Source of the DNA: an uncultured delta proteobacterium
GTDB lineage: Bacteria > Desulfobacterota > RBG-13-43-22
Length of the DNA stretch: 38,364 bases
Assembly (NCBI GenBank): GCA_963711835.1
Contig: CAVQFQ010000023.1
Coordinates: forward strand, 1-38,364
Reading direction: 5' to 3'
Position 1 is the first letter of the stretch. Each line of letters opens with the position of its first letter. Positions 693 through 28,405 of the stretch are shown one piece after another. The notes under the pieces were generated by a model that worked only from the letters and a program-made list of their open reading frames with translations, had not been told where the DNA came from and did no database searches. Position numbers and translations under genes: made by a program.

Positions 693-701
693 GAAATATC
701 A

Positions 702-717: not shown

Positions 718-832
718 GATAATCGGTACTTCTTGATTTCGCTGACTTGGGGTCTCTCCAAAATCTAAAGCAAAGCCACGACATAGTCTACCGCAGCCTG
801 CCGCCTAAGTTTTGGCCTGGTATCTTCGAGGG

Positions 833-1008: not shown

Positions 1009-1025
1009 CCTTTTGCATAGACATT

Positions 1026-2165
1026 CTATTTAAATTCACCGGCCCATAACCGTTCAATAAACTGGGGCCAGGGTATCACCTCAATATTTTTTGCCGGCCG
1101 GCGAGGCTGTTTTTCCAGGCAGACGATACAGCATTTTTTTACCGGTCCGTCTTCCAGAAGGGCTTGCAGCCCGCCGATATCGCCTTCGTGGACGCGGGAG
1201 GAGCCTTTAATTTCTATCGCCAGCTCCTTGTCCCCGAGGAGGAAGTCAACCTCACGGCCGGTTGAAGTCCGCCAGAAAGTAATGGGCCAATCGGGATTTC
1301 GGTAGGCCTGATACGCTTTTAATTCCATCAAAATATAGTGTTCAAAAGCTTTGCTGAATTCCGGACTTCCGATTTTGGGTTGGCGTCTGGCCAGATAGTT
1401 GGCTACCCCCACGTCGAACAAATAAAACTTTTCGGTGGTGATCATTCGCCGGTTTTTCGATTTCTTCCAGGGTGGTATTCTGAATCCCAGATAGGTATCT
1501 TCCAGGATGTCGAAATAAGTCCGTATGACTTTATGCGAAACGCCTGTTTCTCTGGCGATGTTGACGTAATTGATGAGCTCGCTGGAAGTGATCGCCGCCA
1601 CCCGCATGAATTCACTGAAGGCCGGGATGTTTTGGGTGAGCGCTTCCGCGACCACCTCTTCTTTCAAATAATCGGCCAGATAAGAGCGTAAATCTTCAAT
1701 CGGGTCGGGGGAGAGGTAGTGGGGCGGGAGCAGCCCGGAAAACATAACGCGTTCCAGGTTAAACCCGGTTACCTCCATATAGGACAGAGGGGTCAGGGTT
1801 CTACGCCAGGCTCGGCCTCCCAGGAGATTGGCATGTCCGCGCCGTAGTTTACGGGCACTGGAACCGGTCAATAAAAAAGAAAGGGTTGTGTTCTCAATCA
1901 GCCAGTGGACTTCATCCAGGAGGGCCGGGGCTTTTTGGACTTCATCGATAACCACCAGTCCCCGGTGATTCTGATAGCGTTCTCGGAGCAGCGCCGGGCG
2001 GGAGATGTATTCCGCAAAAACATCGGTCTTCAGCAAATCAATAATCTCGGCCCCGACCAGGTGGTGGGTGATCCAATAGGTTTTGCCGACCTTGCGAGGG
2101 CCCCAAAGGAAAGCGGACTTCCCGGGGGGCAGGTTAAGCTCAAACAGTCTGTTTTTAATTTTCAT
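1026..2165 (-). CDS. AAA_14 ATPase with DUF4143 / PD-(D/E)xK-like C-terminus
   Basis: Walker A GPRKVGKT, Walker B IDEVQ, LTGSS, KFYLFDVG, EVDF...IEIK. Confidence 0.9.
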   Translation of the reverse strand: MKIKNRLFELNLPPGKSAFLWGPRKVGKTYWITHHLVGAEIIDLLKTDVFAEYISRPALLRERYQNHRGLVVIDEVQKAPALLDEVHWLIENTTLSFLLTGSSARKLRRGHANLLGGRAWRRTLTPLSYMEVTGFNLERVMFSGLLPPHYLSPDPIEDLRSYLADYLKEEVVAEALTQNIPAFSEFMRVAAITSSELINYVNIARETGVSHKVIRTYFDILEDTYLGFRIPPWKKSKNRRMITTEKFYLFDVGVANYLARRQPKIGSPEFSKAFEHYILMELKAYQAYRNPDWPITFWRTSTGREVDFLLGDKELAIEIKGSSRVHEGDIGGLQALLEDGPVKKCCIVCLEKQPRRPAKNIEVIPWPQFIERLWAGEFK

Positions 2166-2437
2166 AATAATAGAAATTTATCCGAATAATTTTTCCTGGT
2201 AAAGAAAATTATCTACTCCACAGACTCAGACGGCGCCAACGTTTCCATATCCGCCTCCAGTCACATTTGCCTTGATAAAACTCGTTTCCGGCGAATTTCC
2301 CGACCAGTTCGGGCACGGGAATTGGGGTTAAGCTAACAGCTCAGAGCTGACAGCTCATACTCTTTAGAGGGTATCAAAAACAGGATCATTAAAGCTTCTC
2401 AGGACAGGTGCCTGAAAAGCCGGCTACTTAAGAAATT

Positions 2438-2472
2438 AAAAAGGCCCTGCCCTTGAGTATAAGGCAGGGCCT
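2438..2472 (-). terminator. Intrinsic terminator downstream of tRNA-Thr
   Basis: GC-rich hairpin AGGCCCTGCC...GGCAGGGCCT followed by a T-run on the minus strand. Confidence 0.7.
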
Positions 2473-2551
2473 CTAAGTTTCATTCATCCTCCCGAAATTG
2501 AGGTTAGACAAAGAAGAAAAGGAAAATATTCCGGGCTTCTTGAATTTAGAC

Positions 2552-2626
2552 TGGAGCCGGCGATGGGATTCGAACCCGCGACCTGCTGATTACGAATCAG
2601 CTGCTCTACCCCTGAGCTACGCCGGC
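2552..2626 (-). tRNA. tRNA-Thr(CGT)
   Basis: Reverse complement GCCGGCGTAGCTCAGGGGTAGAGCAGCTGATTCGTAATCAGCAGGTCGCGGGTTCGAATCCCATCGCCGGCTCCA: cloverleaf, anticodon CGT, TTCGAAT T-loop, encoded CCA. Confidence 0.97.
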
Positions 2627-2635
2627 CCGGAAGGA

Positions 2636-2664
2636 ATAATTCCACAGATGGCCCGGATTGTCAA
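2636..2664 (-). promoter_or_regulatory. Putative sigma-70 promoter of the tRNA
   Basis: TTGACA-N17-AATTAT on the minus strand just upstream of the tRNA. Confidence 0.45.
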
Positions 2665-2810
2665 TAAAGAGATGGAATAATTACCGGTTGGAGGTAAGAA
2701 GTTTGAGGCCCAAAAATTATATAGAATCGGGCGGCCTTCTTAATCTATAATACCGAATCACAGGGTATTGAAGCCTACTCTCGGTAATAAGCCGACCAAG
2801 GAGGAGGACT

Positions 2811-4418
2811 ATGGACCACGGAAACCGGACCCCGCAATACGGGCTGGAACATCATGGGATAAAAAACGCCGGTAACATCTATTGGAATTTAACCACCCCC
2901 GAGCTCTATGAAGAGGTGGTCCGCCGCCGAGAAGGCGTCATCGCCCATTTAGGGCCGATTGTGGTCAGGACCGGCCATCATACCGGCCGCTCACCAAATG
3001 ACAAAAGGATCGTCCGGGAAAAATCGACCACCGACAAGATCTGGTGGAGTCCGGTAAACGTTCCTATGGAAGCCGGAAAAGTTTGAGGTGCTCAATTTCA
3101 GGCTGCTGGCCTATCTCCAGGGAAAGGATATTTTTGTCCAGGATTGCTATGCCGGGGCAGACCCCAAATACCAGGTACCGATCCGAATTATTACCGAAAG
3201 CGCCTGGCATAATCTCTTTTCCCGGAATATGTTTGTCCAGATCAAAGAACCCGACACCTATGCCCAGCATGTCCCCAAATTTACCATCATCAATGTCCCC
3301 CAATTCCATGCCGATCCGGAAATGGACGGGACCAATTCGGAGTCCTTTATCATCGTCAACTTCGGAAAGAGCTTGATTCTGATCGGAGGCACCAGCTATG
3401 CCGGTGAGATCAAAAAATCCGTCTTTACCGTCTTCAATTATCTCTACCCCCAGGAAAAGGTCCTCTCCATGCACTGTTCGGCCAATGTGGGGGAAGAAGG
3501 GGACGTGGCCGTCTTTTTCGGTCTGTCCGGGACCGGTAAGACCACCCTTTCGGCCGATCCGGATCGTTACCTGATCGGGGACGATGAACACGGCTGGAGT
3601 GACAAAGGGATCTTTAACTTTGAAGGAGGTTGTTATGCCAAAGTCATTCGGCTTTCCCTGGAAGCCGAACCCGACATTTATGAGTGCACCCGAAGGTTCG
3701 GAACGATTCTGGAAAATGTCGCCATCGATCAGGAAACGCGCCGTATCGATTTAAACGACGGCTCCTTGACGGAAAATACCCGGGCCGCCTATCCCATCAG
3801 CCATATCCAGAAGGCCCTCCGTTCCGGGGTGGCCGAGCATCCCCGGAATATTATTATGCTGACCTATGATGCCTTCGGGGTTTTGCCCCCGATCGCCAAG
3901 TTGACTCAGGAACAGGCCATGTATCAGTTTCTGTCGGGTTATACCGCCAAAGTGGCCGGAACCGAAAAAGGACTGGGCCAGGAACCCCAGGCCACCTTCA
4001 GCACCTGTTTCGGAGCCCCTTTTATGGCCCTGCCCCCGACGGTCTATGCCGGTCTTCTCGGGGACCGGATTAAAGAACATCAGGTAAAATGCTGGCTGGT
4101 CAATACCGGTCTTACCGGCGGACCTTTCGGAGTCGGCCAACGGATCAAAATCGCCTATACCCGGGCCATGATCCATCAAGCCTTAAAGGGAGGGTTGGAT
4201 GATGTGCCTATGGAATTGGATCCCATTTTCCATCTTCGGGTCCCGGTCAATTGCGCCGGGGTTCCCAAGGAAATCCTGGCAACCCGATCCACCTGGAAAA
4301 AGCCCGGGGAATACGACCGAAAGCCAGGGAGCTGGCGGCCCGTTTTCGGGAAAACTTCAAACAGTATGCCTCCAAGGTTTCGGCCAAGGTCCGGAAGGCC
4401 GGACCCCCTGAAACCTAA
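2811..4418 (+). pseudogene. pckA: Phosphoenolpyruvate carboxykinase (ATP) with two frameshifts (sequence error or pseudogene)
   Basis: TGRSPNDK, GTSYAGEIKK, MHCSAN, FFGLSGTGKTTLS, GDDEHGW, NFEGGCYAK, ENTRAAYP. One extra base near 3070; one missing base near 4321, after which KARELAARFRENFKQY...GPPET* ends at TAA 4416-4418. Confidence 0.9.
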
Positions 4419-4443
4419 CCAAAAATATTTAAATTTTTGGTTA

Positions 4444-4578
4444 GAAACTCGAAATCCGAATATCGAAATCCGAAACAAATTCAAATGACCAAATCTTAAA
4501 ATTTAAAAGTCTTGTTTGGTCATTTAAATTTTGGACCTTCGTGCTTGTTTCGGATTTCGTGCTTCGAATTTCGGATTT
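4444..4578. repeat. Heptamer-periodic imperfect inverted repeat (GAAATCC type)
   Basis: GAAACTC GAAATCC GAATATC GAAATCC GAAACAA...CAAATGACCAAA mirrored by TTTGGTCATTT...TTGTTTCGGATTTCGTGCTTCGAATTTCGGATTT, between convergent genes. Confidence 0.75.
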
Positions 4579-4636
4579 AAAGATTATGTCGGTCCCAATG
4601 TTAGAAAAAAATTTAAAGCCCCGCTAAAAAAAGAGC

Positions 4637-5023
4637 TTAGGGCTGCAGCAATTCGCCGATTCGCCGCACCAGGGCCTGGGTATCGACCGGTTTCTGGAAA
4701 AAATCATCGGCCAGGGTTTCCATTCCGCCGCGCAAGGTATAGGTGGTCGTGGTGATATGGTCCCCCACGGCCGTCAGCAAAATGATCGGAATCTCCCCTA
4801 AGACCGGGTCTTTCTTAAGCTCGTTGCAGACTGCGTAGCCGTCCTTATCCGGCATCATGACGTCCAGGACGATCAGATCCGGTCTTTCCTGCCGGGCCTT
4901 ATCCATTCCCTCCAGTCCGCCATAGGCCGGTATGGGGGCAAACCCCCTGGCCTCCAGCATCATGCTGACGGTTTCCACCAGATCGGGGTCGTCATCGACG
5001 ATTAAAATCCTTTTCTTGTCCAT
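4637..5023 (-). CDS. Single-domain response regulator
   Basis: ILIVDDD, DLIVLDVMMP, LLTA, FQKP. Confidence 0.92.
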   Translation of the reverse strand: MDKKRILIVDDDPDLVETVSMMLEARGFAPIPAYGGLEGMDKARQERPDLIVLDVMMPDKDGYAVCNELKKDPVLGEIPIILLTAVGDHITTTTYTLRGGMETLADDFFQKPVDTQALVRRIGELLQP

Positions 5024-5070
5024 AAAAACTCCTTTCGTTCATCTCGCATTGCGCTAGGCCCCATGCCCGT

Positions 5071-5955
5071 TCAGATTCCCGCGGCCTTTAAAATATCCGG
5101 CACCACCTCTTCCTTACCGATGGCCATAATATGGACCCCGTCGCAGATCTTTTCCTCTTTAATCTGCCGGATCATCCGGCCGGTGATTTCAATGCCTTTG
5201 GCCAGGGCCTGTCCCTTGGGGGCCCCGGCCATTTCATCAATCAGGTTTTGGGGAACAAAAACGCCCGGGACGTTTTTGTTCATGTACTGGGCCATCCGGG
5301 CCGAGGTCAGCAGGATGACCCCGGCCAGAATCTTGACCGGGAATTGCCGGGCATACTTCATGAAGCGGGCAAATTTATCCAGATCATATACGGCCTGGGT
5401 CTGGATGAACTCGGCCCCGGCCTCGATCTTTTTTTCGAATTTGATGAGTTGCGGTTCCAGAGGGTTGGCCTCCGGGGTGACGATGGCGCCGGCACAAAAT
5501 TCTACGGCGCCGTCCAGATCGCTCCCGCCCAGGTCCCTGCCCTTTTCCAGGCTGCGGATCGTGGCCAGCAACTGGCTGGAGTCGAGGTCGAAAACCGCTT
5601 TGGCGGTTTTATGGTCCCCGACGACAATGGAGTCGCCGGTCAAACAGAGGACATTCGTGATGCCCCGTTGATAGGCGAAAAGGAGATCGGCCTGCAGGGC
5701 CAGGCGGTTACGATCCCGGCAGGTCATCTGCAGGATGGGTTCCCCGCCCCTTTCCTTGACGACCAGGGCCGCCCCGAGCGAAGGAAAACGCATCACCGAA
5801 CTCTGGTGGTCGGTCAGGTTAAGGGCATCCACCTTGTCCTTCAAGAGGTCAATGTGATGAATCATCTTGTCCAAATTGGTACCCTTAGGAGGGCCGACCT
5901 CACTGGTAATGACGAACTTACCGGATTGCAGGGTCTGACGAAAAGGGTGAGCCAT
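5071..5955 (-). CDS. metF: Methylenetetrahydrofolate reductase, MetF subunit
   Basis: SEVGPPKG, LTD, QMTCRDRNRLALQ, CLTGD, KKIEAGAEFIQTQ, GVHIM. Start placed at ATG 5955 behind AAGGAG. Confidence 0.92.
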   Translation of the reverse strand: MAHPFRQTLQSGKFVITSEVGPPKGTNLDKMIHHIDLLKDKVDALNLTDHQSSVMRFPSLGAALVVKERGGEPILQMTCRDRNRLALQADLLFAYQRGITNVLCLTGDSIVVGDHKTAKAVFDLDSSQLLATIRSLEKGRDLGGSDLDGAVEFCAGAIVTPEANPLEPQLIKFEKKIEAGAEFIQTQAVYDLDKFARFMKYARQFPVKILAGVILLTSARMAQYMNKNVPGVFVPQNLIDEMAGAPKGQALAKGIEITGRMIRQIKEEKICDGVHIMAIGKEEVVPDILKAAGI

Positions 5956-5959
5956 GACC

Positions 5960-6622
5960 TTAACTCCTTTCTCCCAAGGGGACAAAATATTTTCCGGGCT
6001 TGGGTTCTTTTTGATGATTGCGCGGACCCTGGTAACGCTTCATCAGATGTAATTGACCCAGCTCTTCCAGGCGGCGGTGGATCAAGGTCCAGGCACAGTC
6101 CTTCTGGGGATCGATTTCACACTTGCCGTTGTTGGTGCCGCCGCAGGGGCCGTTGACCATCCCCTTGTGACAGGAAGTCACCGGGCAGATGCCTCCGGTT
6201 TGGCCCAGGACGCATTCCCCGCACTGGGTACAGATTTCGTCAAACTGCCCCAGTCCCTTTTCCTTGCCGATAAACAGGGTATCCAGGGCCGGTATGACCG
6301 GCAGGACCAGCTGACGGGCTACGGTTTGAACTCCGAAGGCACAGGTCATGATCAGCAGGGCGTTGGCCTGGCTGATCTGGGGGCTGAATTCCTTCAGGGC
6401 CTCTTCGGTCAGGTTGTCACAGGCCACCGGCAAGATCAGGGTTCCGGTCACCATTTTCCCCTTTTTGGAGAGCTTGTCCTTCATCTCCCTGACCTCGGGT
6501 TCTCCCCCGGTTCGGCAGAGGGTCACACAGGTTCCGCAGCCGATGATAAAAATCCTGCCCAGGCCCTCTAAAAGCTGATCAATCTCTGCTTCGGTTTTTT
6601 GACGTGTAATAGACCGGATCAT
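5960..6622 (-). CDS. metV: MTHFR Fe-S/Zn subunit MetV
   Basis: GCGTCVTLCRTGG, CAFGVQ, CTQCGEC...GGICPVTSCHKGMVNGPCGG...CE...DCAW; adjacent to metF. Confidence 0.88.
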   Translation of the reverse strand: MIRSITRQKTEAEIDQLLEGLGRIFIIGCGTCVTLCRTGGEPEVREMKDKLSKKGKMVTGTLILPVACDNLTEEALKEFSPQISQANALLIMTCAFGVQTVARQLVLPVIPALDTLFIGKEKGLGQFDEICTQCGECVLGQTGGICPVTSCHKGMVNGPCGGTNNGKCEIDPQKDCAWTLIHRRLEELGQLHLMKRYQGPRNHQKEPKPGKYFVPLGERS

Positions 6623-6631
6623 GGCACTCTC

Positions 6632-9600
6632 CTATTTTTTTTCCAGGTCACAGCGGAGACATCTGCGGGCCTCCTGATGGGCCTGGGATTCCTCTAAGCC
6701 TCGTTCGACTTCCCGAAAATCTTTGATGCGCACCCCGGGGTCCTCCAGGGTGATTTTGATCCTGGGCCTGGCCGGGATGGATTCCTCTTCCAGGGCCAGG
6801 AGCGACTCTTCCTTCATCTCGGTTTTTTCATCCGGCAGTTGAACCGGCCCCTGCACGCCCTGAAGGAACTGGTCGATGGAGACGGCGGCCCTGCGTCCCG
6901 ACCCGATAGCCCGGATGACAAAGGTCGGACCGGTGGTAAAGTCCCCGCCGGCAAAGATGCCCGGGATATTGGTGCTGAGGGTATTGTCATTGATCTCCAG
7001 GGTTCCCCAGAGGGCCCTTTCCAGTTGGCTGTCCTCGGAGAGGAAAGAGAGGTCCGGGGCCTGACCGATGGAAATGATGACCGTATCGGCCTCCACGGTC
7101 CGGGTGATATCCGGATCGAAGGTCGGTTTGAAACGGCCTTCGGAATCAAAAACCGCCAGGCAGCGCCTGAAGGTGATACCGGTGATCTTTCTTTCCTCCT
7201 GAAGGATCTGAACCGGGCCCCAGGAAGGATGAATGATGATCCCCTCCTCGATGGCCTCGTGAATTTCTTTTTCCCAGGCCGGCATCTCCTGGCGGGCCTC
7301 CAGGCAGTAAAGCAGGACCTCCTCCGCCCCCAAGCGCAAGGCGGTCCGAGCCACATCGATGGCCACGTTGCCGCCTCCGACGACCACGGCCTTGCCCTTC
7401 AGTTCAGGGGCCTGGCCGGTCTTGGCCTGGCTTAAGAATTGGAGACCGTAATAAAGCCCTTCCAGGTCTTCTTCTTCTCCAGGTACGCCGATGCGCTTGC
7501 TGGACTGGGCCCCGGCGGCAATAAAGATGGCGCTATAGCCTTCCTTTTTCAGGTCATTAACCGTATGCCGGGCATTGATGGGGGAATTGTAGCGGATTTC
7601 CACCCCGCAGCTTTCAATGTAGTCGATTTCCTTCTGGATAATCTCCCGGGGAAGGCGGAATTCCGGAACCGTAATCCCTAACATCCCTCCGGCAACCGAC
7701 TGGGCTTCGAACACCGTTACCGGGTAGCCTGATTTGGCCAGGAAATAAGCACAGGTCAGGCCGGCCGGCCCGGCGCCCACAATGGCCACCTTTTGCCTTT
7801 GGGTTTTGCTAAAGGGTTGCCGGGCCGTCTGGAGATGGTCAAAATACCAATCGGCCGCAAACCGTTTCAGGGATCGGATAGCCACCGGCTCATCCAATTC
7901 CCCCCGGCGGCATTTGAATTCGCAGGGATGGATGCAGATACGGCCGCAGACCGCCGGAAACGGGTTCTTTTCCCGGATGATCTCTACCGCCTGTTCATAC
8001 TTGCCCATGGCGATGGCCGCCACATAGTTGGGCACGTCGATCCCGGCCGGGCAGGTGTGCTGGCAGGCCGAGATGACCATGGCATCGCAGGTAGCGGCCG
8101 GGCAGCGCTTTTCCCGGATATGGGCCTCGTATTCGTCCCGAAAATACTGGATGGTCGTCAGGACCGGGTTGGCGCAGGATTGGCCCAGTCCGCAGAGGGA
8201 GGAGGCCTTGACGGCCTGGCCTACAGTCAGAAGCGTCTCAATATCCCCTTCCCGTCCTTCACCCCGGGTGATCCGGGTCAGGATCTTGAGCATCTGGGTG
8301 GTGCCCAGGCGGCAGGGGCTGCATTTGCCGCAGGATTCATCCTGGGTAAAGGAGAGAAAATAGCGGGCAATATCCACCATGCAGGTATTTTCATCCATGA
8401 CGATCATGCCCCCGGAACCCATCATGGAGCCCACGCGGCGCAGGGAGTCATAATCAATAGGCAGATCCAGGAAGCGGGCCGGGATGCATCCGCCCGAAGG
8501 TCCCCCCATCTGAACGGCTTTAAATTTCCGGCCTTTGGGAACTCCGCCGCCGATATCAAAGATGACCTCCCGCAAGGTCGTCCCCATGGGGACTTCCACC
8601 AGACCGGTATTATTGATCCGGCCGGTTACGGAAAAAATTTTGGTCCCTTTGCTCTTTTCCGTTCCCAGGCCGGCGTACCATTCCCAGCCCTTTAAAATGA
8701 TGGTCCGGATATTGGCAAAGGTTTCCACGTTGTTGATGGAGGTGGGTTGGCCTCTAAGCCCGGCCTGGGCCGGATAGGGCGGCCGGATTCGAGGCATGCC
8801 TCGCCGTCCTTCGACCGAGGCAATCAGGGCGGTTTCCTCTCCGCAGACAAAGGCCCCGGCCCCTTCCTTGATTTGAATAGCGAAGTCAAAGCCGGATCCA
8901 AGAATATTTTTTCCCAGAAGCCCCGCTTCCGTAGCCCGGCCGATGGCAATCTTGAGGTGCTTGGTGGCAATGGGATATTCGGCCCGGACATAGATAATCC
9001 CTTCGGCGGCCCCGATGGCGTACCCGGCAATGGCCATCCCCTCGATAACGGAATGGGGATTCCCCTCCAGGACGCTGCGGTCCATAAAGGCCCCCGGATC
9101 CCCTTCATCGGCGTTACAGATGATGTATTTGGCCTTCCCGGGATTTTGACGGGCCGTTCTCCATTTGACCCCGGTGGGAAAGCCGGCTCCCCCCCGGCCC
9201 CGGAGGCCTGATTTTTCAACGGTCTCGATCACCTCCTCCGGGGTCATGAAGGCCAGGACCTTGCTCAGGGCCCCGTAGCCCTGGTAGGTAATGTAATCCT
9301 CGAGGGAGGTCGGATCGATCCGGCCGTTCTCCCCGAGAACCAGACGTTTTTGTTTTTGGTAAAAGGGGACTTCATGGCTGTAAATGTAGGGTTTGCCGCT
9401 TACCGGATCCTTGTAAAGCAGGCGCCCGATGATATTCTTTTTCTCCACCGTTTCGGAAACGATCTCCGGGACATCCTCCGGGGTGATTTGCTGATAAAAT
9501 ATCTCCTGGGGGGCAACGACCAGTAAGGGGGCCCGCTCACAGAACCCGTGGCAGCCGGTCTTCTTGATGGCCACCTGCCGGCCGAGTTTCCTGGCTTCGA

Positions 9601-9754
9601 TTTCCCGAAGCAGGGCCTCATAGACTTCCCCGCTGCCGTAAGCGCTGCACCCGGGACCATCACACAGATAGATGGTGGTCTGCTGAGGATCCTGGAGGTC
9701 CAGTAAGGACTGATGCCACTGATGTAACTGTTCAAAATTTTTAACGCGCTCCAT
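6632..9754 (-). CDS. NuoF/HydB-like NADH-FMN subunit fused to a GltD/NfnB-like FAD oxidoreductase
   Basis: N-terminal thioredoxin-like 2Fe-2S (CDGPGC...GCHGFC), GLRGRGGAGFPTG, NADEGDPG, GAGAFVCGEETAL, ESCGKCSPCR; then CQHTCP...CGRICIHPCEFKC, VGAGPAG, GGGNVA, FAGGD, EARRCLRC. Start at ATG 9754 or TTG 9790. Confidence 0.9.
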   Translation of the reverse strand: MERVKNFEQLHQWHQSLLDLQDPQQTTIYLCDGPGCSAYGSGEVYEALLREIEARKLGRQVAIKKTGCHGFCERAPLLVVAPQEIFYQQITPEDVPEIVSETVEKKNIIGRLLYKDPVSGKPYIYSHEVPFYQKQKRLVLGENGRIDPTSLEDYITYQGYGALSKVLAFMTPEEVIETVEKSGLRGRGGAGFPTGVKWRTARQNPGKAKYIICNADEGDPGAFMDRSVLEGNPHSVIEGMAIAGYAIGAAEGIIYVRAEYPIATKHLKIAIGRATEAGLLGKNILGSGFDFAIQIKEGAGAFVCGEETALIASVEGRRGMPRIRPPYPAQAGLRGQPTSINNVETFANIRTIILKGWEWYAGLGTEKSKGTKIFSVTGRINNTGLVEVPMGTTLREVIFDIGGGVPKGRKFKAVQMGGPSGGCIPARFLDLPIDYDSLRRVGSMMGSGGMIVMDENTCMVDIARYFLSFTQDESCGKCSPCRLGTTQMLKILTRITRGEGREGDIETLLTVGQAVKASSLCGLGQSCANPVLTTIQYFRDEYEAHIREKRCPAATCDAMVISACQHTCPAGIDVPNYVAAIAMGKYEQAVEIIREKNPFPAVCGRICIHPCEFKCRRGELDEPVAIRSLKRFAADWYFDHLQTARQPFSKTQRQKVAIVGAGPAGLTCAYFLAKSGYPVTVFEAQSVAGGMLGITVPEFRLPREIIQKEIDYIESCGVEIRYNSPINARHTVNDLKKEGYSAIFIAAGAQSSKRIGVPGEEEDLEGLYYGLQFLSQAKTGQAPELKGKAVVVGGGNVAIDVARTALRLGAEEVLLYCLEARQEMPAWEKEIHEAIEEGIIIHPSWGPVQILQEERKITGITFRRCLAVFDSEGRFKPTFDPDITRTVEADTVIISIGQAPDLSFLSEDSQLERALWGTLEINDNTLSTNIPGIFAGGDFTTGPTFVIRAIGSGRRAAVSIDQFLQGVQGPVQLPDEKTEMKEESLLALEEESIPARPRIKITLEDPGVRIKDFREVERGLEESQAHQEARRCLRCDLEKK

Positions 9755-9798
9755 GCTCAGCCTTTCTGATCCGATAGCTTTTTGTTCCAAGCCATCGA

Positions 9799-10254
9799 CT
9801 ATGAGCGGTATTTGTTAAGAATCGTTTCAATGCGTTTCGGGGTCATCTTGCCGAAATAGGTTTGATTTACCACCATAACTGGTGATAAGGCGCAGGCCCC
9901 CAGTCAGGCCACCGTTTCCAGGGTGAAAGAGTAATCCGGCGCGGTTTCTCCCTCTTCCAAGTCCAGATCTTTTTGCACCACCCGCAAAACGCCTCGGCCG
10001 CCCCGGACGTGGCAGGCTGTTCCACGACAGACCTTGACCACGGTTTTTCCCCTGGGATGGGTGTAAAACTGGGAATAAAAGGTGACCACCCCCTGGACTT
10101 GACTGGGAGTCACCCCCAAGGCTTCGGCGATTTGAGGCACCACCTCTTCAGGGAGATAACCAAGGCGCTCCTGAACCTGCTGCAGGAGAGGGATTAAGGC
10201 CTCTTTGTTTCTGCCAAAGGTCTGCAAGATGTCCTGGATATCTGGGCTGGTCAT
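9799..10254 (-). CDS. NuoE/HydC-like 2Fe-2S subunit, probable selenoprotein (TGA at 9904-9906)
   Basis: CRGTAC motif, then LETVA-TGA-LGACALSPVMVVNQTYFGKMTPKRIETILNKYRS*. The TGA occupies the first Cys of CLGAC; read-through gives 151 aa. Confidence 0.85.
9867..9888 (-). promoter_or_regulatory. Candidate bacterial SECIS hairpin
   Basis: TTATCACCA-GTTA-TGGTGGTAA: 9-bp stem (one G-U) with a G-first tetraloop beginning about 24 nt after the TGA. Confidence 0.7.
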
Positions 10255-12902
10255 TCGAACGCTCCTATTTTATGGATTTTCACCGGACAGATCTTATGAA
10301 GAGACCCTTTGCTGCTGGGATCCCAAAAGGCCTCCAACAGGCCGGGAATCTTTAACTCGGGATAAGGCAGGGGAAGAAAAACAACCCCGGGCAACACCTG
10401 GTCTTCAATAAGGGCCGATACCTGCAGGCTGCCCCGCCGGGAACAAATTTCGACCGGATCCCCGGACCGTATCTCCAACCGTTGGGCATCGTCCAGAGAG
10501 AGGGTTAGTTTAGGCGGGGGGGTTACGGACTTCAAACGCCGGTCTTTCCAGGTGCGGGTACCGGCCCCCAAATGCAGAACCAGGCTGCCCCAGATAAGCA
10601 GGAAAGGATAATCCGGATCCTGGGCCAATCTTTCTAATTGTATCTTGGGAATGAGAAAAGGAAACGGTTTGCCTGTCGGCTGGAAGGGCGGGAGGAAAAC
10701 AGGTCCCTTGGATAACCGGTCTGGATTGATCTGATTATAACTCGGGACCAGCCCCTGGATTTCCCTGAAGAGTTCAGCCGGGGCATAGGCAGCCTGAGGG
10801 ACCCCGAAGGCCTGGAAAAGGGAATGAAAGATTTCCCCATCGGCTTTGGCTTCTCCCGGGGGAGGAATCGCCTGTTGCAAGGCCTGGACCCGTCGTTCCA
10901 GGCTGGTAAAGGTCCCCTCTTTTTCTGCGAAAGCGGCTGTTGGAAGGACCACCTGGGCCTTTTGGGCCGTTTCGGATAAAAAAAGATCCTGAACGACTAA
11001 AAAGTCCAGACGGTCCAAGGCCCCTTCAACCCAATTTCGATCCGGGTAGGTCCCCAGAGGGTCTTCGCCGGCCAGGTATAATCCCTTCAATTCCCCCTGT
11101 TGGGCCGAGGCCATCATTTCCAGGGCCGACAAACCCGGCCCTGGAGGGACTGGGACACCCCAGGTTTCCTCAAATTTTTTAACGGCCTGAAAGTCGGTCA
11201 GGTTATGATAGCCCGGGAGATAATCCGGCAAGACCCCCATATCCCAGGCCCCCTGGGCATTGCTTTCCTTCAAAATAGGATAAAGGCCGCTCCCGGGTTT
11301 TCCCCATTGCCCGGTGAGGAGCATTAAATTCATTAGGCCCATCACCAGGGCCGTGGCCTGCAATTGCTGGTTCACCCCGGAGCCCAGGACCAGGGCCACC
11401 CCCCTGGCTGAAGCAAACCCTTCAGCAGCCCTACGGACTTCCTGGGAAGACAAACCGATAGTCTTCCTTAAGGATTTCAGGTCCTGTTTTAGGAAGGACT
11501 CCTTCCATTCCAGGAATCCTTCCGTTTGGGAATAAACAAACCCCTGGTTCCAGAGGTTCTCACTAAGCAGATGGGCGATCAGGAGTTGGATCAGGGCCAG
11601 ATCCGAACCCGGCTGAATTTGGAGCCAGAGGTCGGCCCGGGTGGCCAGCTTGGTCTTCCTGGGATCCACAACCGTCAGCTTAGCCCCTTTCTGGGCTACC
11701 GCCCTTTTGACCATATAGCCTAAGACCGGGCTGCTTTCCGTGGGATTGCCCCCCATGACCCAGATCAAATCGGCCTCCAAAAGCCGGTGGAGCGGGGCCA
11801 TGGCCCCGGCCTGCCCCCAGACCTTGGCCATCACAGTCATGATCGGGGCCATTGATAACCGGGATCCGTTGTCCACATGAGGGGTCTTTAGTCCAGCCCG
11901 AGCCAGCTTTTGGAAAAGGTAAAGCTCCTCATTAGTTAAATGAGGACTGGCCAGACAACCGATCCGATCCGATCCCCATTCCTTCTGTATTCGACTGAAC
12001 CCCTCCTTTACCGTGCTTAGGGCCTCTTCCCAGGAGGCCTTCTCCAGGGTTCCGTTCCTCCGAATCAGGGGATAGAGCAGGCGATCCGGACTATGGACAT
12101 AATTAAATCCGAAATGTCCTTTGACACAGAGAACCGGGCCCTTCTCGCCGTCGTTGGCCGGCGTGACTCGTATAATCCGATCGGAGTGGGTTTCCAGGAC
12201 CAGGGAACAGCCGCAGCCGCAGTGCGAACAGACCGTTACCGTCCGGGTTGGGATGGCCCCCTGGTGAAACAACTGGGTTTCGGTCAGGGCCCCGGTGGGA
12301 CAGAGGGAGAGGCAGGTCCCGCAAAAAGTACAGGCCGACTGCTCCAAGGGGACGTTTTGAAAGGTGGCCGGACGGGCCTTAAAGCCCCGGTTAATATAGT
12401 CCAAAACCCCTTCCACCACCAGCTCCTGGTCGCCCCGGATGCATTTCCCGCAGAGGATGCACTTGCTCATATCCCGCTTAAAGAAAGGATTACTATCATA
12501 GGTCGGGAAGTACTGGGGCATGGGATCCAGAAGAATCGCCCCCAATCCCAGTTCAGCGGCCACGCTTCTGAGCTGGCAGCGGTTCCCCTTGTCGCAAACA
12601 ATGCAGGATTCAGGATGACTGGCCAACATGAGCCCAATGACGGCCCGGCGGCTCTCCAGGACCCGAGGGGAATGGGTCTTAAGTATCATCCCGGGAGCAA
12701 TGGTCGTTACGCAGGAGGGCAACAGGACACCCCGGCTCTCTTCTTCCACCAGACAGATCCGGCAGGCCCCGGCCGCCGGAAGATGCGGGTCATGGCAAAG
12801 GGTTGGGATAGGGATTCCCAGATCCTGGGCCAACTCCAGGATAGTCATTCCGGCCTTACCACTTACAGTCTGCTCGTTGATCTGTACGGTTACGCTACTC
12901 AC
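10251..12902 (-). CDS. FdhA/NuoG-like molybdopterin-oxidoreductase-fold Fe-S subunit with degenerate active site
   Basis: 2Fe-2S (GACRIC), HxxxCxxC cluster, CILCGKC and CTFCGTC ferredoxin motifs, CSHCGCGC...CVKG, EKEGTFTSLERR. Catalytic Cys/Sec-His position reads SRLSM. Confidence 0.85.
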   Translation of the reverse strand: MSSVTVQINEQTVSGKAGMTILELAQDLGIPIPTLCHDPHLPAAGACRICLVEEESRGVLLPSCVTTIAPGMILKTHSPRVLESRRAVIGLMLASHPESCIVCDKGNRCQLRSVAAELGLGAILLDPMPQYFPTYDSNPFFKRDMSKCILCGKCIRGDQELVVEGVLDYINRGFKARPATFQNVPLEQSACTFCGTCLSLCPTGALTETQLFHQGAIPTRTVTVCSHCGCGCSLVLETHSDRIIRVTPANDGEKGPVLCVKGHFGFNYVHSPDRLLYPLIRRNGTLEKASWEEALSTVKEGFSRIQKEWGSDRIGCLASPHLTNEELYLFQKLARAGLKTPHVDNGSRLSMAPIMTVMAKVWGQAGAMAPLHRLLEADLIWVMGGNPTESSPVLGYMVKRAVAQKGAKLTVVDPRKTKLATRADLWLQIQPGSDLALIQLLIAHLLSENLWNQGFVYSQTEGFLEWKESFLKQDLKSLRKTIGLSSQEVRRAAEGFASARGVALVLGSGVNQQLQATALVMGLMNLMLLTGQWGKPGSGLYPILKESNAQGAWDMGVLPDYLPGYHNLTDFQAVKKFEETWGVPVPPGPGLSALEMMASAQQGELKGLYLAGEDPLGTYPDRNWVEGALDRLDFLVVQDLFLSETAQKAQVVLPTAAFAEKEGTFTSLERRVQALQQAIPPPGEAKADGEIFHSLFQAFGVPQAAYAPAELFREIQGLVPSYNQINPDRLSKGPVFLPPFQPTGKPFPFLIPKIQLERLAQDPDYPFLLIWGSLVLHLGAGTRTWKDRRLKSVTPPPKLTLSLDDAQRLEIRSGDPVEICSRRGSLQVSALIEDQVLPGVVFLPLPYPELKIPGLLEAFWDPSSKGSLHKICPVKIHKIGAFE

Positions 12903-12916: not shown

Positions 12917-13315
12917 TTAATCGAGTTTGCGATTCCCGCCGGCCGCCAGCCTTTCCCAGGCGTTTCGGACAGCCAACAGTAATTCTTCGGGACCGAAGGT
13001 CTTAACATGGTAGTAATAAATCGGATTTTGACGGATTCGGGCTTCCAGCTCCGGTGTATTTTCTCTGGCCGTGACAATAATCAGCAAAGAAGGATCCACC
13101 CCTTTTAGGATGGATATGGCTTCATAGGCCTTCATTTCCGGCATCTCCGCCGCCATGATCAAGATTTCGACTTTTTCCTGTTGGACGATCTGGATAGCCT
13201 GGATGCTTCTGGCGGCGGTAAAAATCTGGAATCCTTCTTCTCCCAGGGTCCTTGACCAATGGGAAAGGAATTGGGCATCCGGATCAGCGATCAAAATTGT
13301 CCCTGGTTTTTCCAT
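12917..13315 (-). CDS. Receiver-domain protein lacking the phospho-acceptor Asp
   Basis: ILIADPD...EILIMAAEMPEM...IIVTA...YHVKTF; receiver fold. Start at ATG 13315. Confidence 0.75.
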   Translation of the reverse strand: MEKPGTILIADPDAQFLSHWSRTLGEEGFQIFTAARSIQAIQIVQQEKVEILIMAAEMPEMKAYEAISILKGVDPSLLIIVTARENTPELEARIRQNPIYYYHVKTFGPEELLLAVRNAWERLAAGGNRKLD

Positions 13316-13331
13316 GGCAGCCTTCAATAAG

Positions 13332-13348
13332 AGCAAAGGGCATACCAG
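13332..13348 (-). promoter_or_regulatory. Sigma-54 (-24/-12) promoter
   Basis: CTGGTATGCCCTTTGCT with exact GG-N10-GC spacing, immediately downstream of an NtrC-family gene and facing the redox operon. Confidence 0.65.
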
Positions 13349-13461
13349 GAGGCGCCTCATCCTTAATGGGTTAATTTTACTGTTGATCAGGTAAATGGAG
13401 GGAAAGGCTGGGAGGATACGGCTGTTACAAAATGCCTCAGGTGTGTAGTTTCACCTCACCT

Positions 13462-14832
13462 TTACAAGCGGTATTTTTTGATCTTTTCCAGGAGGGTCTT
13501 GCGATTGATGCCCAGCAGTTCAGCGGCCTGGGAACGATTGCCCTGGGTCTTTTTTAAAACCTGTCCGATGTACTCTTTTTCCAACTCCTGCAGGGTGGCC
13601 ACCTTTTCCTCGGATAGGGGAAGGTCTTGATGCTTCCGTTGGATAAACCAGGGGATGTCCTCCGGCCTGAGGATCGGCCCATCCTCCAATATGACGATGC
13701 GCTCGATTAAATGCTTCAGCTCCCGGACGTTGCCCGGCCAGTCATATTCCATCAGCAGTTCCAGGGCCTCCGGGGAAATCCCCTGGATCGTTTTTTTATT
13801 TTTTTTGCTGAATTGGCGGAGAAAATAATCGACCAGCAGGGGGATGTCTTCCCTTCTTTCCTTAAGGGACGGCAAGTGGATGGGAACCACGCTCAGGCGG
13901 TAGAAGAGATCCTCACGGAAGAGTCCCTGCCGGATGGCCTGGCGAAGATCCTGGTTGGTGGAGGCGATGATGCGGATATCGACCTTGATTTTCTTCTCAC
14001 TGCCGACCTTGATGAATTCCCTCTCCTGGATAACCCGCAATAATTTGGCCTGGATGTTCAAGCTGAGGTTGGAGATTTCGTCAAAGAAAAAGGTCCCTCC
14101 GTTGGCCAGTTCCAAAAAGCCGTGTTTGGTCTGAATGGCCCCGGTGAAGGAACCCTTGACATGGCCGAAGAGCTCGCTCTCCATCAAGGTCTCCACCAGA
14201 GCCGAGCAGTCTACAGCCACGAACTCTTTGTCCCCCCGGAGGCTGTGTTGCTGGATGGCCCGGGCCACCAGTTCCTTGCCGGTGCCGCTGAAACCATAAA
14301 TCAGGACCGTGCTGTCGGTGGGGGCCACTTTCTCAATGGTCTGAAAGATCTTTTGCATGGCCCGGCTCTTGCCGATCAGCGGGTCGAGACCGCCTTTCAG
14401 TTCCATCTGCTTTCTCAAGAGATGGTTCTCCCAGAGGAGCTGCCTGTGTTCCAGGGCTTTGCGGATGGCCAGCTTCAACTGGTCCGGGCTGAACGGCTTG
14501 GTCAGGTAATCAAAGGCCCCCTGCTTAATGGATTGAACGGCTGTTCCAATTTCAGGGTAGCCGGTAATCATGATGATTTCAAGCGCACCGCGGACTTCCG
14601 ATTCGGTAATAGTTCTCAAAACCTCCAGGCCGTCCATATCCGGCATCTTGATATCCAGAAGCACCAGGCTGTAGGCGTTCTGGGCTACTTCTTCCAGGGC
14701 CTCCCGGCCGGTGGCCACGGCCTTGACCAGAAAGCCTTCTTTGATCAAGACCCGACTGATGCCTTCCCGGATGACCGCCTCATCATCCACCACCAGGATT
14801 CGGATATCGGGACTCTTCCTAAGCTCCTGCAT
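13462..14832 (-). CDS. NtrC-family sigma-54-dependent response regulator
   Basis: Receiver, GFSGTGKEL, ESELFGHVKGSFTGA, FFDEI, FREDLFYRL, WPGNVREL, Fis-type HTH. Confidence 0.95.
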   Translation of the reverse strand: MQELRKSPDIRILVVDDEAVIREGISRVLIKEGFLVKAVATGREALEEVAQNAYSLVLLDIKMPDMDGLEVLRTITESEVRGALEIIMITGYPEIGTAVQSIKQGAFDYLTKPFSPDQLKLAIRKALEHRQLLWENHLLRKQMELKGGLDPLIGKSRAMQKIFQTIEKVAPTDSTVLIYGFSGTGKELVARAIQQHSLRGDKEFVAVDCSALVETLMESELFGHVKGSFTGAIQTKHGFLELANGGTFFFDEISNLSLNIQAKLLRVIQEREFIKVGSEKKIKVDIRIIASTNQDLRQAIRQGLFREDLFYRLSVVPIHLPSLKERREDIPLLVDYFLRQFSKKNKKTIQGISPEALELLMEYDWPGNVRELKHLIERIVILEDGPILRPEDIPWFIQRKHQDLPLSEEKVATLQELEKEYIGQVLKKTQGNRSQAAELLGINRKTLLEKIKKYRL

Positions 14833-14838
14833 GCGGAC

Positions 14839-15321
14839 TTATTCCATTCCCGGCACTTCGAAAGCCTGCTCAATGGCCTTAACCGCTGTGGATAAATCGG
14901 AGGCCCTGATGACGCAGGAACAAGTGGAGATTGAGGTACTGATGGCCATGATATTGATGTTGCGCAAATTCAGGGCCGCGAAAAAAGAGCCGGCAATCCC
15001 GGGACGCTCCCGGAAATGGGGGCCGAAGATCGAAACCACCGCAATATCCGGATTGGATGTGAGATTTAAAAATTGGATTTGGGGTTTCAGTTCATTTAAA
15101 ACCGCCAGGGCCTCATCGGCGGCCGAACGGGAGATACAGAGGATGACCTGGCTTTCTCCGCGCTGGCTCAAGCAGTGCATGATGAACTCCACGTTGAGGC
15201 CCCGACGACCCAGGGATTGAAAAATCAAACCGGCGACACCCGGCCGGTCGGGGATGTTTTCAATACTGACCAGGCTTAAATCGGTGTGCTCGATGATTCC
15301 ACCCAGTTTGATCTTTTTCAT
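14839..15321 (-). CDS. Stand-alone tandem ACT-domain protein (aspartokinase regulatory domain-like)
   Basis: IPDRPGVAGLIF...NVEFI; VSIFG...ERPGIAGSFFAAL...INIMAISTS. Confidence 0.85.
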   Translation of the reverse strand: MKKIKLGGIIEHTDLSLVSIENIPDRPGVAGLIFQSLGRRGLNVEFIMHCLSQRGESQVILCISRSAADEALAVLNELKPQIQFLNLTSNPDIAVVSIFGPHFRERPGIAGSFFAALNLRNINIMAISTSISTCSCVIRASDLSTAVKAIEQAFEVPGME

Positions 15322-15546
15322 TTTTTTCCTTTTGGCGCTTGTTCCAGCCGCTATCCGCTACCAGCTCAACACTCTGAACTCTTAATATCGTTCAAAGGTT
15401 TTGGCACTGGTGTAGCATGGCCTGACTTGGGGACCGGGATCAGGCTGCCGGCGTTTTGGCGGACAATCCTTCAAATCGAGACCCCCGGTCCCTTTCCATC
15501 GGGTATCAGAAACATAATACCACAACCTTTGGACGATACCGAACTC

Positions 15547-15993
15547 TTAGATTTGCCCCATCAGGAGCCGGCGGGTGCGCTGCAGGCGTTTGGCAATGAT
15601 GATGCACAAATTCCGCATCACTTTAAAGCCCAGCGCCGGATGTTGCGTTAGGACTTGGTTGAACGCTTTTCGCTCGAACGATAAGACCCGGGTTTTTTCC
15701 AGGCAGATGGCCGTGGCGCTAAGCTGATACGGTTCAACCAGGGCTGACCAGCCGAAGGGGCTGCCTTTTTTTTTAATTATTTCAAAGGTGACCTCCAGAC
15801 CTTCGGACAGGGCTGTTTTCACGGCCACTACCCCTCGATCCAGCAGATAGACCCTTTCGCCCAGGGTATCCTGATAAAAGATGATCGACCCGGTAGGAAA
15901 GGTTTCGGCCTCGGCCAGTGGAGTTAAGAGTTCCAGATCGTGGGAGGATATCTTGTTAAACAATTCACTCTGTTTGACTGGGCTAAGAACCAT
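15547..15993 (-). CDS. Cyclic-nucleotide-binding-domain protein without HTH
   Basis: IFYQD...VYLLDRGVV, FGWSALV, SATAIC. Confidence 0.85.
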   Translation of the reverse strand: MVLSPVKQSELFNKISSHDLELLTPLAEAETFPTGSIIFYQDTLGERVYLLDRGVVAVKTALSEGLEVTFEIIKKKGSPFGWSALVEPYQLSATAICLEKTRVLSFERKAFNQVLTQHPALGFKVMRNLCIIIAKRLQRTRRLLMGQI

Positions 15994-17485
15994 GGCTATC
16001 CCTTTCTGTTGGAATGGATGGAATCAGGACCTTAAAGCAGGTGCCCCGGTCCGGATGACTTTCCACCTGAATGTACCCCAAATGGGCCTCGACCAGACGC
16101 TTGACAATAGGCAATCCCAAACCGGTTCCGATGATCTGCCGGGTTTTCTCATTTTTTACCCGGAAAAAGCGATCAAAGATCCTCGGAAGATCCTGGGGGG
16201 ATATGCCTATGCCGGTGTCTGAAACCTGGATGAGGAGGTATTCCGCTTCAGGGCTTAGGGAAACCTGAATAGACCCTCCTTCCGGCGTATATTTGACGGC
16301 GTTATGAACCAGGTTGGTCAAAATTTCCTCCATGGCCTGGGGATCGGCATGGACCAAGGGTAGGGGCGAACCGGCTTTTAGGGACAGCTTCTGATTTCTG
16401 GCCTCTGCCTGCGGTTTGAACAGGTCAAGGGTCCTTTCAACCAGGGGCAGAAGCTGGAGCGGCTCTTTTTGTTGAAACTGAATCCCGGCCTCGATCTGGG
16501 AAATATCCAAAAGATTGCGGATGAGTTCCAGGAGACCGGACACCCTCTCCTTGGATCGACCCAGGAGTTCTTTCTGCTTGGGGCTGACTTCCCCGGCCAG
16601 TCCCTCCAGGATAACCGAGATCTGCTGCGAAATAGCGGACAAAGGGGCCCTGAGCTCATGGGAAACCATGGCCACAAACTCGCTTTTCATCTGATCCAGG
16701 GCCTTCAGGTAGCTGATATCCTGGAGCACGGTCACCGACCCCAGCATCTCTTCGGAATCTCCCCGGACCGCGGCGGTATGGGCCCGCAAATAAACCGGAT
16801 CGTTTTGTCCTAAAGAAAATTCCTGGGAAATCACCGAAGGGCTTTCTCCCTGAGTTAAGACCTGGCCGATGGCCTCGGAAAGGAGTTTTAATTCAGAAGA
16901 GTCGGGCAAGGGCTTACCCAGGAGATCCAGGGGCGGCAACCTGAGTAAATGGATCGAAGCCGGATTATGGAGGACGATGTTTTGGTCCCGGTCGGTTACC
17001 AGCACCCCGCTGGCCATGCAGTGAATGATGGTCTGAATCCGTCCTTTCTCCGTGGCGATGTCTTTAAGGCTTTTTGCCTGTTCTTGGCGCAACCGCTCGG
17101 CTTCGATCTGGAGGGCCCTTTTCTCTAAGGCTCGACGGACAACCAAACGGAGCTGATCCGGTGTGAAGGGCTTGGTAATAATGTCATAGGCCCCGCGCTT
17201 CATGGCCTCCACAGCCAGTTCCACGGTGGCATGTCCGGTGATGATGAGTACGATTTGATCGGGGGAAAGAGCCTGAACCTTTTCCAGAACATCCATGCCG
17301 TTCATGACGGGCATCATGATGTCCAGCAGGACCAGATCAAACGGTTTTTTCTGTAAGAGTTCCCAGGCCTGGGCCCCATTTTCTACCAAGGTGATTTGAT
17401 ATTTTTCCCTGGAAAGGATGCGCTGGATCCCGTCTCGAATTACTTTTTCGTCATCAGCCAAAAGTAAGGAATAGTCTGAACCCAT
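15983..17485 (-). CDS. Hybrid receiver-PAS-histidine kinase
   Basis: LLADDE/LLDIMMP receiver, PAS, SHELRAPL, NLVHNAVKY, DTGIG, GTGLGL. Confidence 0.93.
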   Translation of the reverse strand: MGSDYSLLLADDEKVIRDGIQRILSREKYQITLVENGAQAWELLQKKPFDLVLLDIMMPVMNGMDVLEKVQALSPDQIVLIITGHATVELAVEAMKRGAYDIITKPFTPDQLRLVVRRALEKRALQIEAERLRQEQAKSLKDIATEKGRIQTIIHCMASGVLVTDRDQNIVLHNPASIHLLRLPPLDLLGKPLPDSSELKLLSEAIGQVLTQGESPSVISQEFSLGQNDPVYLRAHTAAVRGDSEEMLGSVTVLQDISYLKALDQMKSEFVAMVSHELRAPLSAISQQISVILEGLAGEVSPKQKELLGRSKERVSGLLELIRNLLDISQIEAGIQFQQKEPLQLLPLVERTLDLFKPQAEARNQKLSLKAGSPLPLVHADPQAMEEILTNLVHNAVKYTPEGGSIQVSLSPEAEYLLIQVSDTGIGISPQDLPRIFDRFFRVKNEKTRQIIGTGLGLPIVKRLVEAHLGYIQVESHPDRGTCFKVLIPSIPTERDSHGS

Positions 17486-28402: not shown

Positions 28403-28405
28403 TTC

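Follow-up and report, generated by a model that had tools for sequence, protein, structure and literature searches.

The window analysed here is a 38,364-nucleotide stretch of DNA (contig CAVQFQ010000023.1, assembly GCA_963711835.1) from an uncultured delta proteobacterium of the Desulfobacterota lineage RBG-13-43-22. It carries a conserved operon for a proposed X-type methylene-tetrahydrofolate (methylene-THF) reductase (MTHFR), which consists of five minus-strand genes in the order fdhA-like, nuoE, nuoF-gltD, metV and metF. In the protein encoded by nuoF-gltD, a GltD flavin module stands where a HydB-like subunit has its ferredoxin-docking domain. This anatomy suggested that the five products might assemble into a single complex and pass electrons between NAD(H) and methylene-/methyl-THF with no need for ferredoxin, for which we see about an even chance. 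The electron donor and the energy coupling of MetVF-type MTHFR are an open question of the Wood-Ljungdahl pathway in both acetogens and sulfate reducers (PMC8760232). The anatomy of the module narrows the options, with ferredoxin unlikely and NADP+ a candidate second acceptor. The features of the operon are as follows.

10251-12902, minus strand: fdhA-like gene (BfuA/NuoG-like), 883 amino acids; assigned by Pfam/NCBIfam, alignment with FdsA, ligand counts and decay of the molybdenum cofactor (Moco) domains
9799-10254, minus strand: nuoE, NuoE/HydC/BfuC-like [2Fe-2S] subunit, 151 codons, read through TGA
9864-9906, minus strand: selenocysteine (Sec) codon TGA at 9904-9906 with a hairpin resembling a Sec insertion sequence (SECIS), GUUA loop, 24 nucleotides downstream of the TGA
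6632-9754, minus strand: nuoF-gltD fusion, ATG at 9754, 1040 amino acids
8080-9754, minus strand: NuoF/HydB/BfuB half of the fusion, with flavin mononucleotide (FMN)/NADH site, B1 [4Fe-4S], and B5 and B2 ligands; boundary approximate
6632-8079, minus strand: GltD/NfnL-like half of the fusion, circularly permuted, with two [4Fe-4S] sites, flavin adenine dinucleotide (FAD) and a pyridine-nucleotide site; boundary approximate
5960-6622, minus strand: metV, Fe-S subunit of MetVF-type MTHFR, 220 amino acids; PF12225, Cys-rich, NGPCGG motif
5071-5955, minus strand: metF, catalytic subunit of methylene-THF reductase, 294 amino acids; PF02219 and tree

The genes were as tightly spaced as the initial annotation had described. 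The fdhA-like gene and nuoE overlapped by 4 nucleotides, the following gaps were 44, 9 and 4 nucleotides, and a purine-rich stretch resembling a ribosome-binding site lay ahead of each start codon. All assignments were backed by Pfam and NCBIfam, and the same scan found no mvhD, hdrA/hdrL or HdrBC among the operon genes. The position of metV directly ahead of metF is that of the MetVF-type gene pair, and NGPCGG is a motif named for MetV (PMC8515935). A sequence search found no solved MetV structure.

The replacement of the ferredoxin-docking domain was observed in the fusion, whose residue numbers start at codon 9757, one codon ahead of the ATG (alignment A3). Residues 1 to about 560 gave HydB/BfuB as the best match (7t2r_B, E 2.8e-226). 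The alignment with HydB stopped near residue 560 and was followed by the GltD module, which was permuted as in StnC/NfnA and occupied the place of the HydB ferredoxin-type domain. The domain scan gave no match in the fusion to Fer4 or to the C-terminal 2x[4Fe-4S] ferredoxin-type domain (B3/B4). In Bfu enzymes B3/B4 is the route to ferredoxin (PMC11829005). Since it was absent, the ferredoxin coupling considered in the initial annotation was disfavoured. The other features of the Bfu family were found, namely the FMN site, B1, the His/Cys ligands of B2, B5, the Phe/Ala/Met signature and the BfuC [2Fe-2S] cluster. Phe193, Ala-Phe-Met 223-225 and the B1 cysteines were invariant in 43 complete related operons, including those with the CLE motif described below; the B2 ligand set was complete in 42 of the 43 and the B5 set in 39. 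Residues of this kind mark the bifurcating Bfu members (PMC9304861). A Lys cluster ligand of the Stn/NfnA type was present in the GltD half of all 43. Two pyridine-nucleotide/flavin sites had been predicted, and both were recovered as the FMN/NADH site of NuoF and the FAD site of GltD. The predicted NuoEFG/HydABC-type module was HydABC-like; however, it was not a complete HydABC/Bfu core, as GltD replaced the ferredoxin domain. A structure model of the fusion (pLDDT 82, pTM 0.67, linker 556-565 below 50) matched HydB-like and NfnA-like chains in its separate halves and did not fix the domain arrangement.

The large subunit is likely to be a non-catalytic electron wire and scaffold, judging from its alignment. 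In the alignment with FdsA, the Mo-ligand Cys was replaced by Ser350, the His by Met351 and the catalytic Arg by Leu544, and the molybdopterin domain lacked the TGR motif. The hallmarks of Mo/W formate dehydrogenases (Cys/Sec ligand, adjacent His, catalytic Arg) were all missing. The catalytic triad was retained in 0 of 43 rows (the window and 42 orthologues); none kept any of the three residues, and 11 different residues occurred at the Mo-ligand position. This was consistent with the non-catalytic large subunit proposed earlier. The subunit retained the ligands for five Fe-S clusters, one of them [2Fe-2S] and four [4Fe-4S], with Asp in place of Cys158 as one ligand. Across all 43 rows there was no variation in the ligands of the [2Fe-2S] cluster, of the His-ligated cluster or of two other [4Fe-4S] clusters; at one cluster Asp replaced Cys in 32 of 43 (an Asp/Cys toggle). 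The cluster labels were assigned by homology to NfnA (PMC11829005). Among positions invariant in 10 catalytic relatives, 90% of the family kept 15 of 19 in residues 1-215 and 33 of 165 in the Moco domains; the window itself kept 93 of those 165. The domain scan and the alignment found no inserted GltD/NfnL domain in this subunit.

The linkage between the fusion and metVF, whose survey the initial annotation had proposed, was far above chance. Relatives of the fusion were surveyed as the best 80 of 580. In this sample, metV lay directly downstream of the fusion in 17 loci from Desulfobacterota-type and Dehalococcoidia genomes, and it was present in all 13 loci that had both the degenerate fdhA-like gene upstream and downstream DNA. 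A catalytic FdhA, not metVF, stood behind the fusion in 11 loci, and a short Fe-S subunit in most others. The linkage was also seen from the side of MetF. In a sample of 401 genomes from the phylum, 48 encoded a MetF at 73% identity or more, and the neighbourhoods of the top 29 were fetched. The nuoF-gltD fusion stood directly upstream of metVF in 26 of the 26 informative genome loci (of 29) and in 60 of 61 informative metagenome loci (of 80), which gave 86 of 87 for the MetF clade of the window. The exception, L145, had nuoF-gltD upstream after a longer gap. By hand count, in which kin are not independent, acsB was found in 45 of the 48 genomes with this clade and in 263 of the 401 overall. 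No cultured organism was among the 120 MetV homologue matches listed.

In the tree, the MetF of the window grouped with those of like operons, including the Desulfarculales loci L053 and L063. The X-type MetFs nested among Desulfobacterota MetFs located behind HdrL/HdrA-MvhD-MetV. Two of the closest non-X MetFs stood behind a minimal GltD-Fer4-MvhD fusion without HdrA (L208:3647-5770 and L209:3691-5760), one with YRR and one with CLE; this fusion is possibly an undescribed minimal NAD(P)H input for MetVF. From this arrangement, a GltD-type flavin site appears as the common nucleotide port across three MetVF architectures. The median identity of the MetV N-domain to the window was 58% for the X type and 33% for the Hdr/MvhD-type sisters, and that of MetF was 79% and 69%, respectively. 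The MetV N-domain, not MetF, thus appears to track the partner type, as expected of an adaptor. In addition, 21 of 44 X-type loci contained an extra degenerate MetF-like gene directly ahead of the fdhA-like gene (e.g. L216:3250-4125, L004:2777-3655), with about 30% identity and the changes GD to ED and TQ to TP. It possibly encodes a sixth, non-catalytic subunit; it was absent from the window and not found in the host genome. In the Planctomycetes loci L017, L029, L033 and L034, metVF with different MetF types lay upstream of nuoE and nuoF-gltD, and L029 and L033 additionally contained a catalytic fdhA. A formate-linked MTHFR would be possible for these clusters.

Residues 818-820 of the window fusion are Cys-Leu-Glu (CLE), in the place of YRR, the motif for NADP binding. 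The 2'-phosphate of NADP(H) is bound by YRR; DsrL proteins that have this motif use NADP(H), and those without it use NAD(H) (PMC7596348). YRR was present in all five solved GltD-type chains compared. Because CLE replaced YRR, the DsrL pattern points to NAD(H) at the GltD site of the window, and both flavin sites are likely to use NAD(H). NADPH, one of the coenzymes named in the initial annotation, was disfavoured for the window copy. Among full-length, stop-free hits only, CLE was found in 25 of 68 X-type GltD modules versus 0 of 57 other NuoF-GltD fusions. YRR occurred in 29 of the 43 complete operons and CLE or CVE in 14. Two further NuoF-GltD fusions in the host genome both carried YRR. 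One (L086:46-9795, G000:C8) stood behind Nuo/Mrp antiporter subunits and ahead of a NuoG-like gene, and the other (L087:2920-9641, G000:C17) stood behind a molybdopterin enzyme.

On quick trees, YRR and CLE interchanged at least 6 times when the nucleotide subdomain was left out and 10 times when the NuoF tree was used. The NuoF half of the window was 87% and 85% identical to the YRR loci L120 and L122, and the GltD half 58% and 61%. The GltD half was 71-73% identical to another lineage whose NuoF was 66-68% identical. In the GltD tree, the window, L001, L120 and L122 were rejected as one group with p-AU 0.004, a group chosen after the trees were inspected. Since the identities of the two halves disagreed and this grouping was rejected, recombination near the joint of the fusion is likely to have replaced the GltD half of the window. 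L120 with YRR and the window with CLE both have a Sec-containing NuoE beside NuoF halves of 87% identity. They form a natural matched pair, which makes the coupling question directly testable.

The Sec predicted in NuoE was supported as the residue at a Cys-ligand position. The TGA is codon 117 and aligned with a cluster-ligand Cys. This position was Cys in 124 of 128 aligned locus hits and TGA in 4, two of which came from one contig; the same TGA was present at three other loci (L001, L201 and L120). The host genome contained tRNA-Sec and SelB. A G-loop hairpin downstream of the TGA had -10.9 kcal/mol in the window and -8.6 to -9.1 in three TGA orthologues. In 41 Cys-codon orthologues, the hairpin at the same site gave medians of -4.1 and -5.75 (range -0.9 to -11.4 kcal/mol), so that the window hairpin was more stable than most of them. 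The features of a bacterial selenoprotein, an in-frame TGA at a conserved Cys, a downstream hairpin and the Sec machinery, were all found. A sequencing error was ruled out by the TGA in other loci and by RNA contigs from all three runs of one study, in which the codon was unchanged. As a caveat beside this call, pckA is broken nearby on the same contig. Sec in a NuoE-type subunit is probably not new, because a review table lists an 'NADH:ubiquinone oxidoreductase subunit E' selenoprotein with a TxxU motif (PMC9312934).

The proposed complex would work as follows. Purified MetV/MetF of C. ljungdahlii lacks a binding site for NAD(P)H and does not use it (PMC8760232), which argues that MetVF needs a partner. 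MetV would dock on the Fe-S wire of the FdhA-like subunit at its His-ligated cluster, the point at which NfnL-type domains pass electrons into Bfu enzymes. This wire would run through B1 to the FMN of NuoF, and the Sec-ligated NuoE cluster would connect the FMN with the GltD clusters and FAD, replacing the ferredoxin arm. In the window copy, NAD(H) would be the hydride partner of both flavins, giving overall NADH + methylene-THF = NAD+ + methyl-THF without energy coupling. The module would then play the part of RnfC2 in Acetobacterium. In YRR relatives, the reaction could be 2 NADH + methylene-THF + NADP+ = 2 NAD+ + methyl-THF + NADPH. This coupled form might be open to YRR members and would not be to CLE members if CLE means NAD. 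A complex prediction for residues 1-770 of the FdhA-like subunit with MetV 1-216 scored 0.22 and 0.14 (mark 0.32) and was not used as evidence.

The energetics were computed with -370 mV for NADPH in vivo, -200 mV for methylene-THF, and -320 or -280 mV for NADH. The uncoupled reaction gave about -15 to -23 kJ/mol, and the NADP+-coupled reaction gave about +2 kJ/mol under assumed in vivo potentials, near equilibrium. The potential of methylene-THF and the value of -320 mV for NADH were taken from PMC8760232, and the in vivo value of -280 mV for NADH from PMC9304861. A tentative and rather doubtful extension would make the X type a ferredoxin-free bifurcating MTHFR. NADH would be the mid-potential donor, with one branch through the FdhA-like wire to methylene-THF and the other to the GltD flavin. 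Lineages would retune the second port by module swap between NADP (coupled) and NAD (uncoupled), and the window would represent the uncoupled, selenium-ligated version.

Several points weigh against an uncoupled NAD(H)-linked complex. The coenzyme specificity rests on a three-residue motif, and no CLE enzyme with measured coenzyme specificity was found in the literature searched. Two NAD sites seem redundant, and bifurcation signatures kept in CLE members are hard to explain without coupling. The loci counted for the linkage are related and partly redundant, so the counts overstate independence. Adjacency also does not prove a complex, because stnABC of S. ovata lies directly downstream of metVF and its product was purified as a separate three-subunit transhydrogenase (PMC7483475). 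On this precedent, the operon might encode two separate enzymes, a rearranged Stn-like transhydrogenase or diaphorase that balances the NAD(P)H pools and a free MetVF fed by a soluble carrier. StnABC has the same domain inventory, and NuoF-GltD fusions occur also with formate dehydrogenases and other partners. However, the linkage is nearly exclusive in both directions across Desulfobacterota and Dehalococcoidia, and CLE is confined to the MetVF-linked fusions. A stand-alone transhydrogenase that used NAD(H) at its two sites would bring about no net reaction, and NfnAB-like genes are already present elsewhere in the genome. We regard this arrangement as improbable.

Another alternative is bifurcation between pyridine nucleotides throughout the family. 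The FMN of all family members might split the electrons of NADH between MetVF at high potential and the GltD FAD at low potential, reducing NADP+, with CLE still taking NADP(H) or another low-potential carrier. All X-type fusions keep the signatures, GltD occupies the place of the low-potential B3/B4 arm, the energetics are near zero and YRR is the more frequent motif of the complete operons. This reading is unlikely, since the window and a third of the complete operons carry CLE or CVE, and characterised Bfu enzymes use NAD+ as the high-potential acceptor, not as a mid-potential donor (PMC11829005). It is slightly less likely still that ferredoxin takes the low-potential electrons. In that case, 2 NADH would reduce methylene-THF and ferredoxin docked on the distal GltD cluster or on A4/A5 of the FdhA-like subunit, and the reverse would drive methyl-THF oxidation. 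This reaction comes to +1.9 kJ/mol at standard potentials, the A4/A5 ligands are conserved despite the dead Mo site, acsB is enriched in the MetF-clade genomes, and the signatures retained in CLE members would be explained. However, the B3/B4 domain is missing, the GltD cluster belongs to the Lys-ligand Stn type, in which the FAD is read as an NADP(H) site and not as a bifurcation site (PMC9304861), and A4/A5 are a dead end in Csac NfnA (PMC11829005). Residual Mo catalysis, in which the FdhA-like subunit would bind molybdopterin without a protein ligand and oxidise some substrate feeding MetVF, is very improbable. It would fit the Moco-domain positions still kept by the window and the Planctomycete loci with metVF ahead of a catalytic FdhA. 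However, the family as a whole has lost most of these positions and TGR, and the ligand position varies freely among 11 residues.

The putative NAD(H)-linked MTHFR was also considered in the context of its host. The host genome contained dsrA, acsB, folD and fhs, with the operon and acsB on different contigs, and no rnfC was found in it above the cut-off. Other loci of the genome carried NfnAB-like genes, clusters of the hdr/mvhD-metVF type and three additional copies of metF, two of which followed Hdr-type genes. These genes suggest that the host reduces sulfate and has both a Wood-Ljungdahl pathway and several isoenzymes of MTHFR, and the presence of dsrA, acsB, folD and fhs makes an oxidative direction of the pathway plausible. 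At L084:5207-17592 (G000:C17), metV occurred without an adjacent metF, behind molybdopterin, Fe-S, HdrBC-like, HdrL-like and hydrogenase-small-subunit-like genes; some frames look broken.

A copy with 98.5% identity was found at a contig end (C21:1-3368), running into the same neighbours. A true duplication of the operon was rejected, and the copy was tentatively read as a strain variant or redundant contig. G000:C21:1-8714 was 92-98.5% identical to window positions 1-7966, most of the left part of the window. As the genome is 6.4% contaminated, the copy probably represents a second strain. In the window, pckA (2811-4488) is broken by a stop after 91 amino acids with an altered C-terminus, and its C21 copy (L081:3631-5262) is intact; this is an assembly error or a pseudogene. 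An AAA_14/DUF4143 region at 1002-2348, possibly a mobile or repeated element, recurred at 95-98% identity in three places on C21. Genes at 26558-35308 resembled anaerobic phenol-type activation, with a split PEP-synthase-like pair, a phenylphosphate carboxylase beta above the cut-off, an acyl-CoA ligase, ubiX and two UPF0261 genes. Response regulators flank the operon on both sides.

12917-14832, minus strand: single-domain response regulator and sigma-54 response regulator, 14-nucleotide gap to the fdhA-like gene
4637-5023, minus strand: single-domain response regulator, 47 nucleotides past metF

From the spacing, the upstream pair is probably on the same transcript as the operon or regulates it, and the downstream regulator is the probable last gene of the transcription unit. 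The same-strand run at 12917-19524, with the sigma-54 regulator, a stand-alone ACT protein, a cNMP-binding protein and two PAS histidine kinases, may control the operon. RNA contigs of a close relative, from the three runs of the study mentioned above, bridged the fdhA-like gene, nuoE and nuoF, and metV and metF. DNA carry-over is possible and contigs cannot establish a single transcript, and these were not counted as evidence of co-transcription. A scan for promoters and terminators was uninformative (promoter-like sites 2 versus 6.2 expected; terminator-like sites 22 versus 15.7 ± 4.0).

The gene arrangement was presented by the initial annotation as a candidate new MTHFR and is not new. Yi et al. 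(2021) described NuoEFG homologues upstream of metFV in Dethiosulfatarculus sandiegensis and proposed a hypothetical 'X type' (group III) MTHFR pentamer (PMC8515935). The window likewise has NuoE, NuoF and NuoG homologues directly upstream of metV-metF, and it was likened to the X type by this arrangement. The X type was described as widespread in Desulfobacterales and Chloroflexi and unstudied, with bifurcation speculated (PMC8515935), and this spread matched that of the present operon kind, including the Desulfarculales L053 and L063. The parts of that account available to us do not mention a GltD fusion, a lost ferredoxin domain, a dead FdhA, a YRR/CLE switch or Sec. The present analysis adds the replacement of the ferredoxin domain by GltD, a recurrent NADP/NAD switch, which in this lineage came with a module swap, and the matched natural pair. 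In agreement with the initial annotation, no characterised X-type enzyme was found in the literature searched, from which subscription journals were mostly outside coverage. Term searches of the available text of PMC11406978, PMC6295475, PMC10553843 and PMC13416013 gave nothing on the X-type operon.

The operon was compared with four known systems. StnABC/NfnABC-Bfu (S. ovata 8oh5, C. saccharolyticus 9bov, T. sibiricus 9n5u) share NuoE, NuoF, a permuted Lys-ligand GltD and a Mo-less Fdh-like domain with the window, and StnABC of S. ovata is also encoded beside metVF (PMC7483475). However, their GltD is inserted in the NuoG-like chain, while it is on the NuoF chain in the window, which also lacks the B3/B4 ferredoxin domain, has CLE for YRR and has no hdr-mvhD before metVF. 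The HydABC/Bfu cores (A. mobile NiFe-HydABCSL 7t2r; T. kivui 8a6t) matched the NuoF half best in both sequence and fold, with the signatures kept, and NiFe-HydA matched the FdhA-like subunit as well. In contrast to these cores, the ferredoxin arm of the window is replaced, and the third substrate proposed here has a potential (-200 mV) above that of NAD. The available part of the Bfu survey (PMC9304861) does not mention methylene, MTHFR or MetF. HdrABC(HdrL)-MvhD-MetVF of the Moorella/Sporomusa type likewise has a GltD-like site that toggles between YRR and CLE, and the X-type MetF nests among its HdrL/MvhD-linked MetFs; however, the window has a Bfu-like core instead of HdrA, HdrBC and MvhD. 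The net reaction of the window copy is likely the same as that of the NADH-dependent MetVF-RnfC2 of Acetobacterium woodii, in which an added subunit supplies the NADH site. The input module of the window is different and much larger, with two flavins, and the genome has no rnfC above the cut-off. These comparisons suggested that the operon falls outside the Bfu, Stn and formate dehydrogenase families on the tested features, and that it might resemble a MetVF-RnfC2 built from Stn/Bfu parts.

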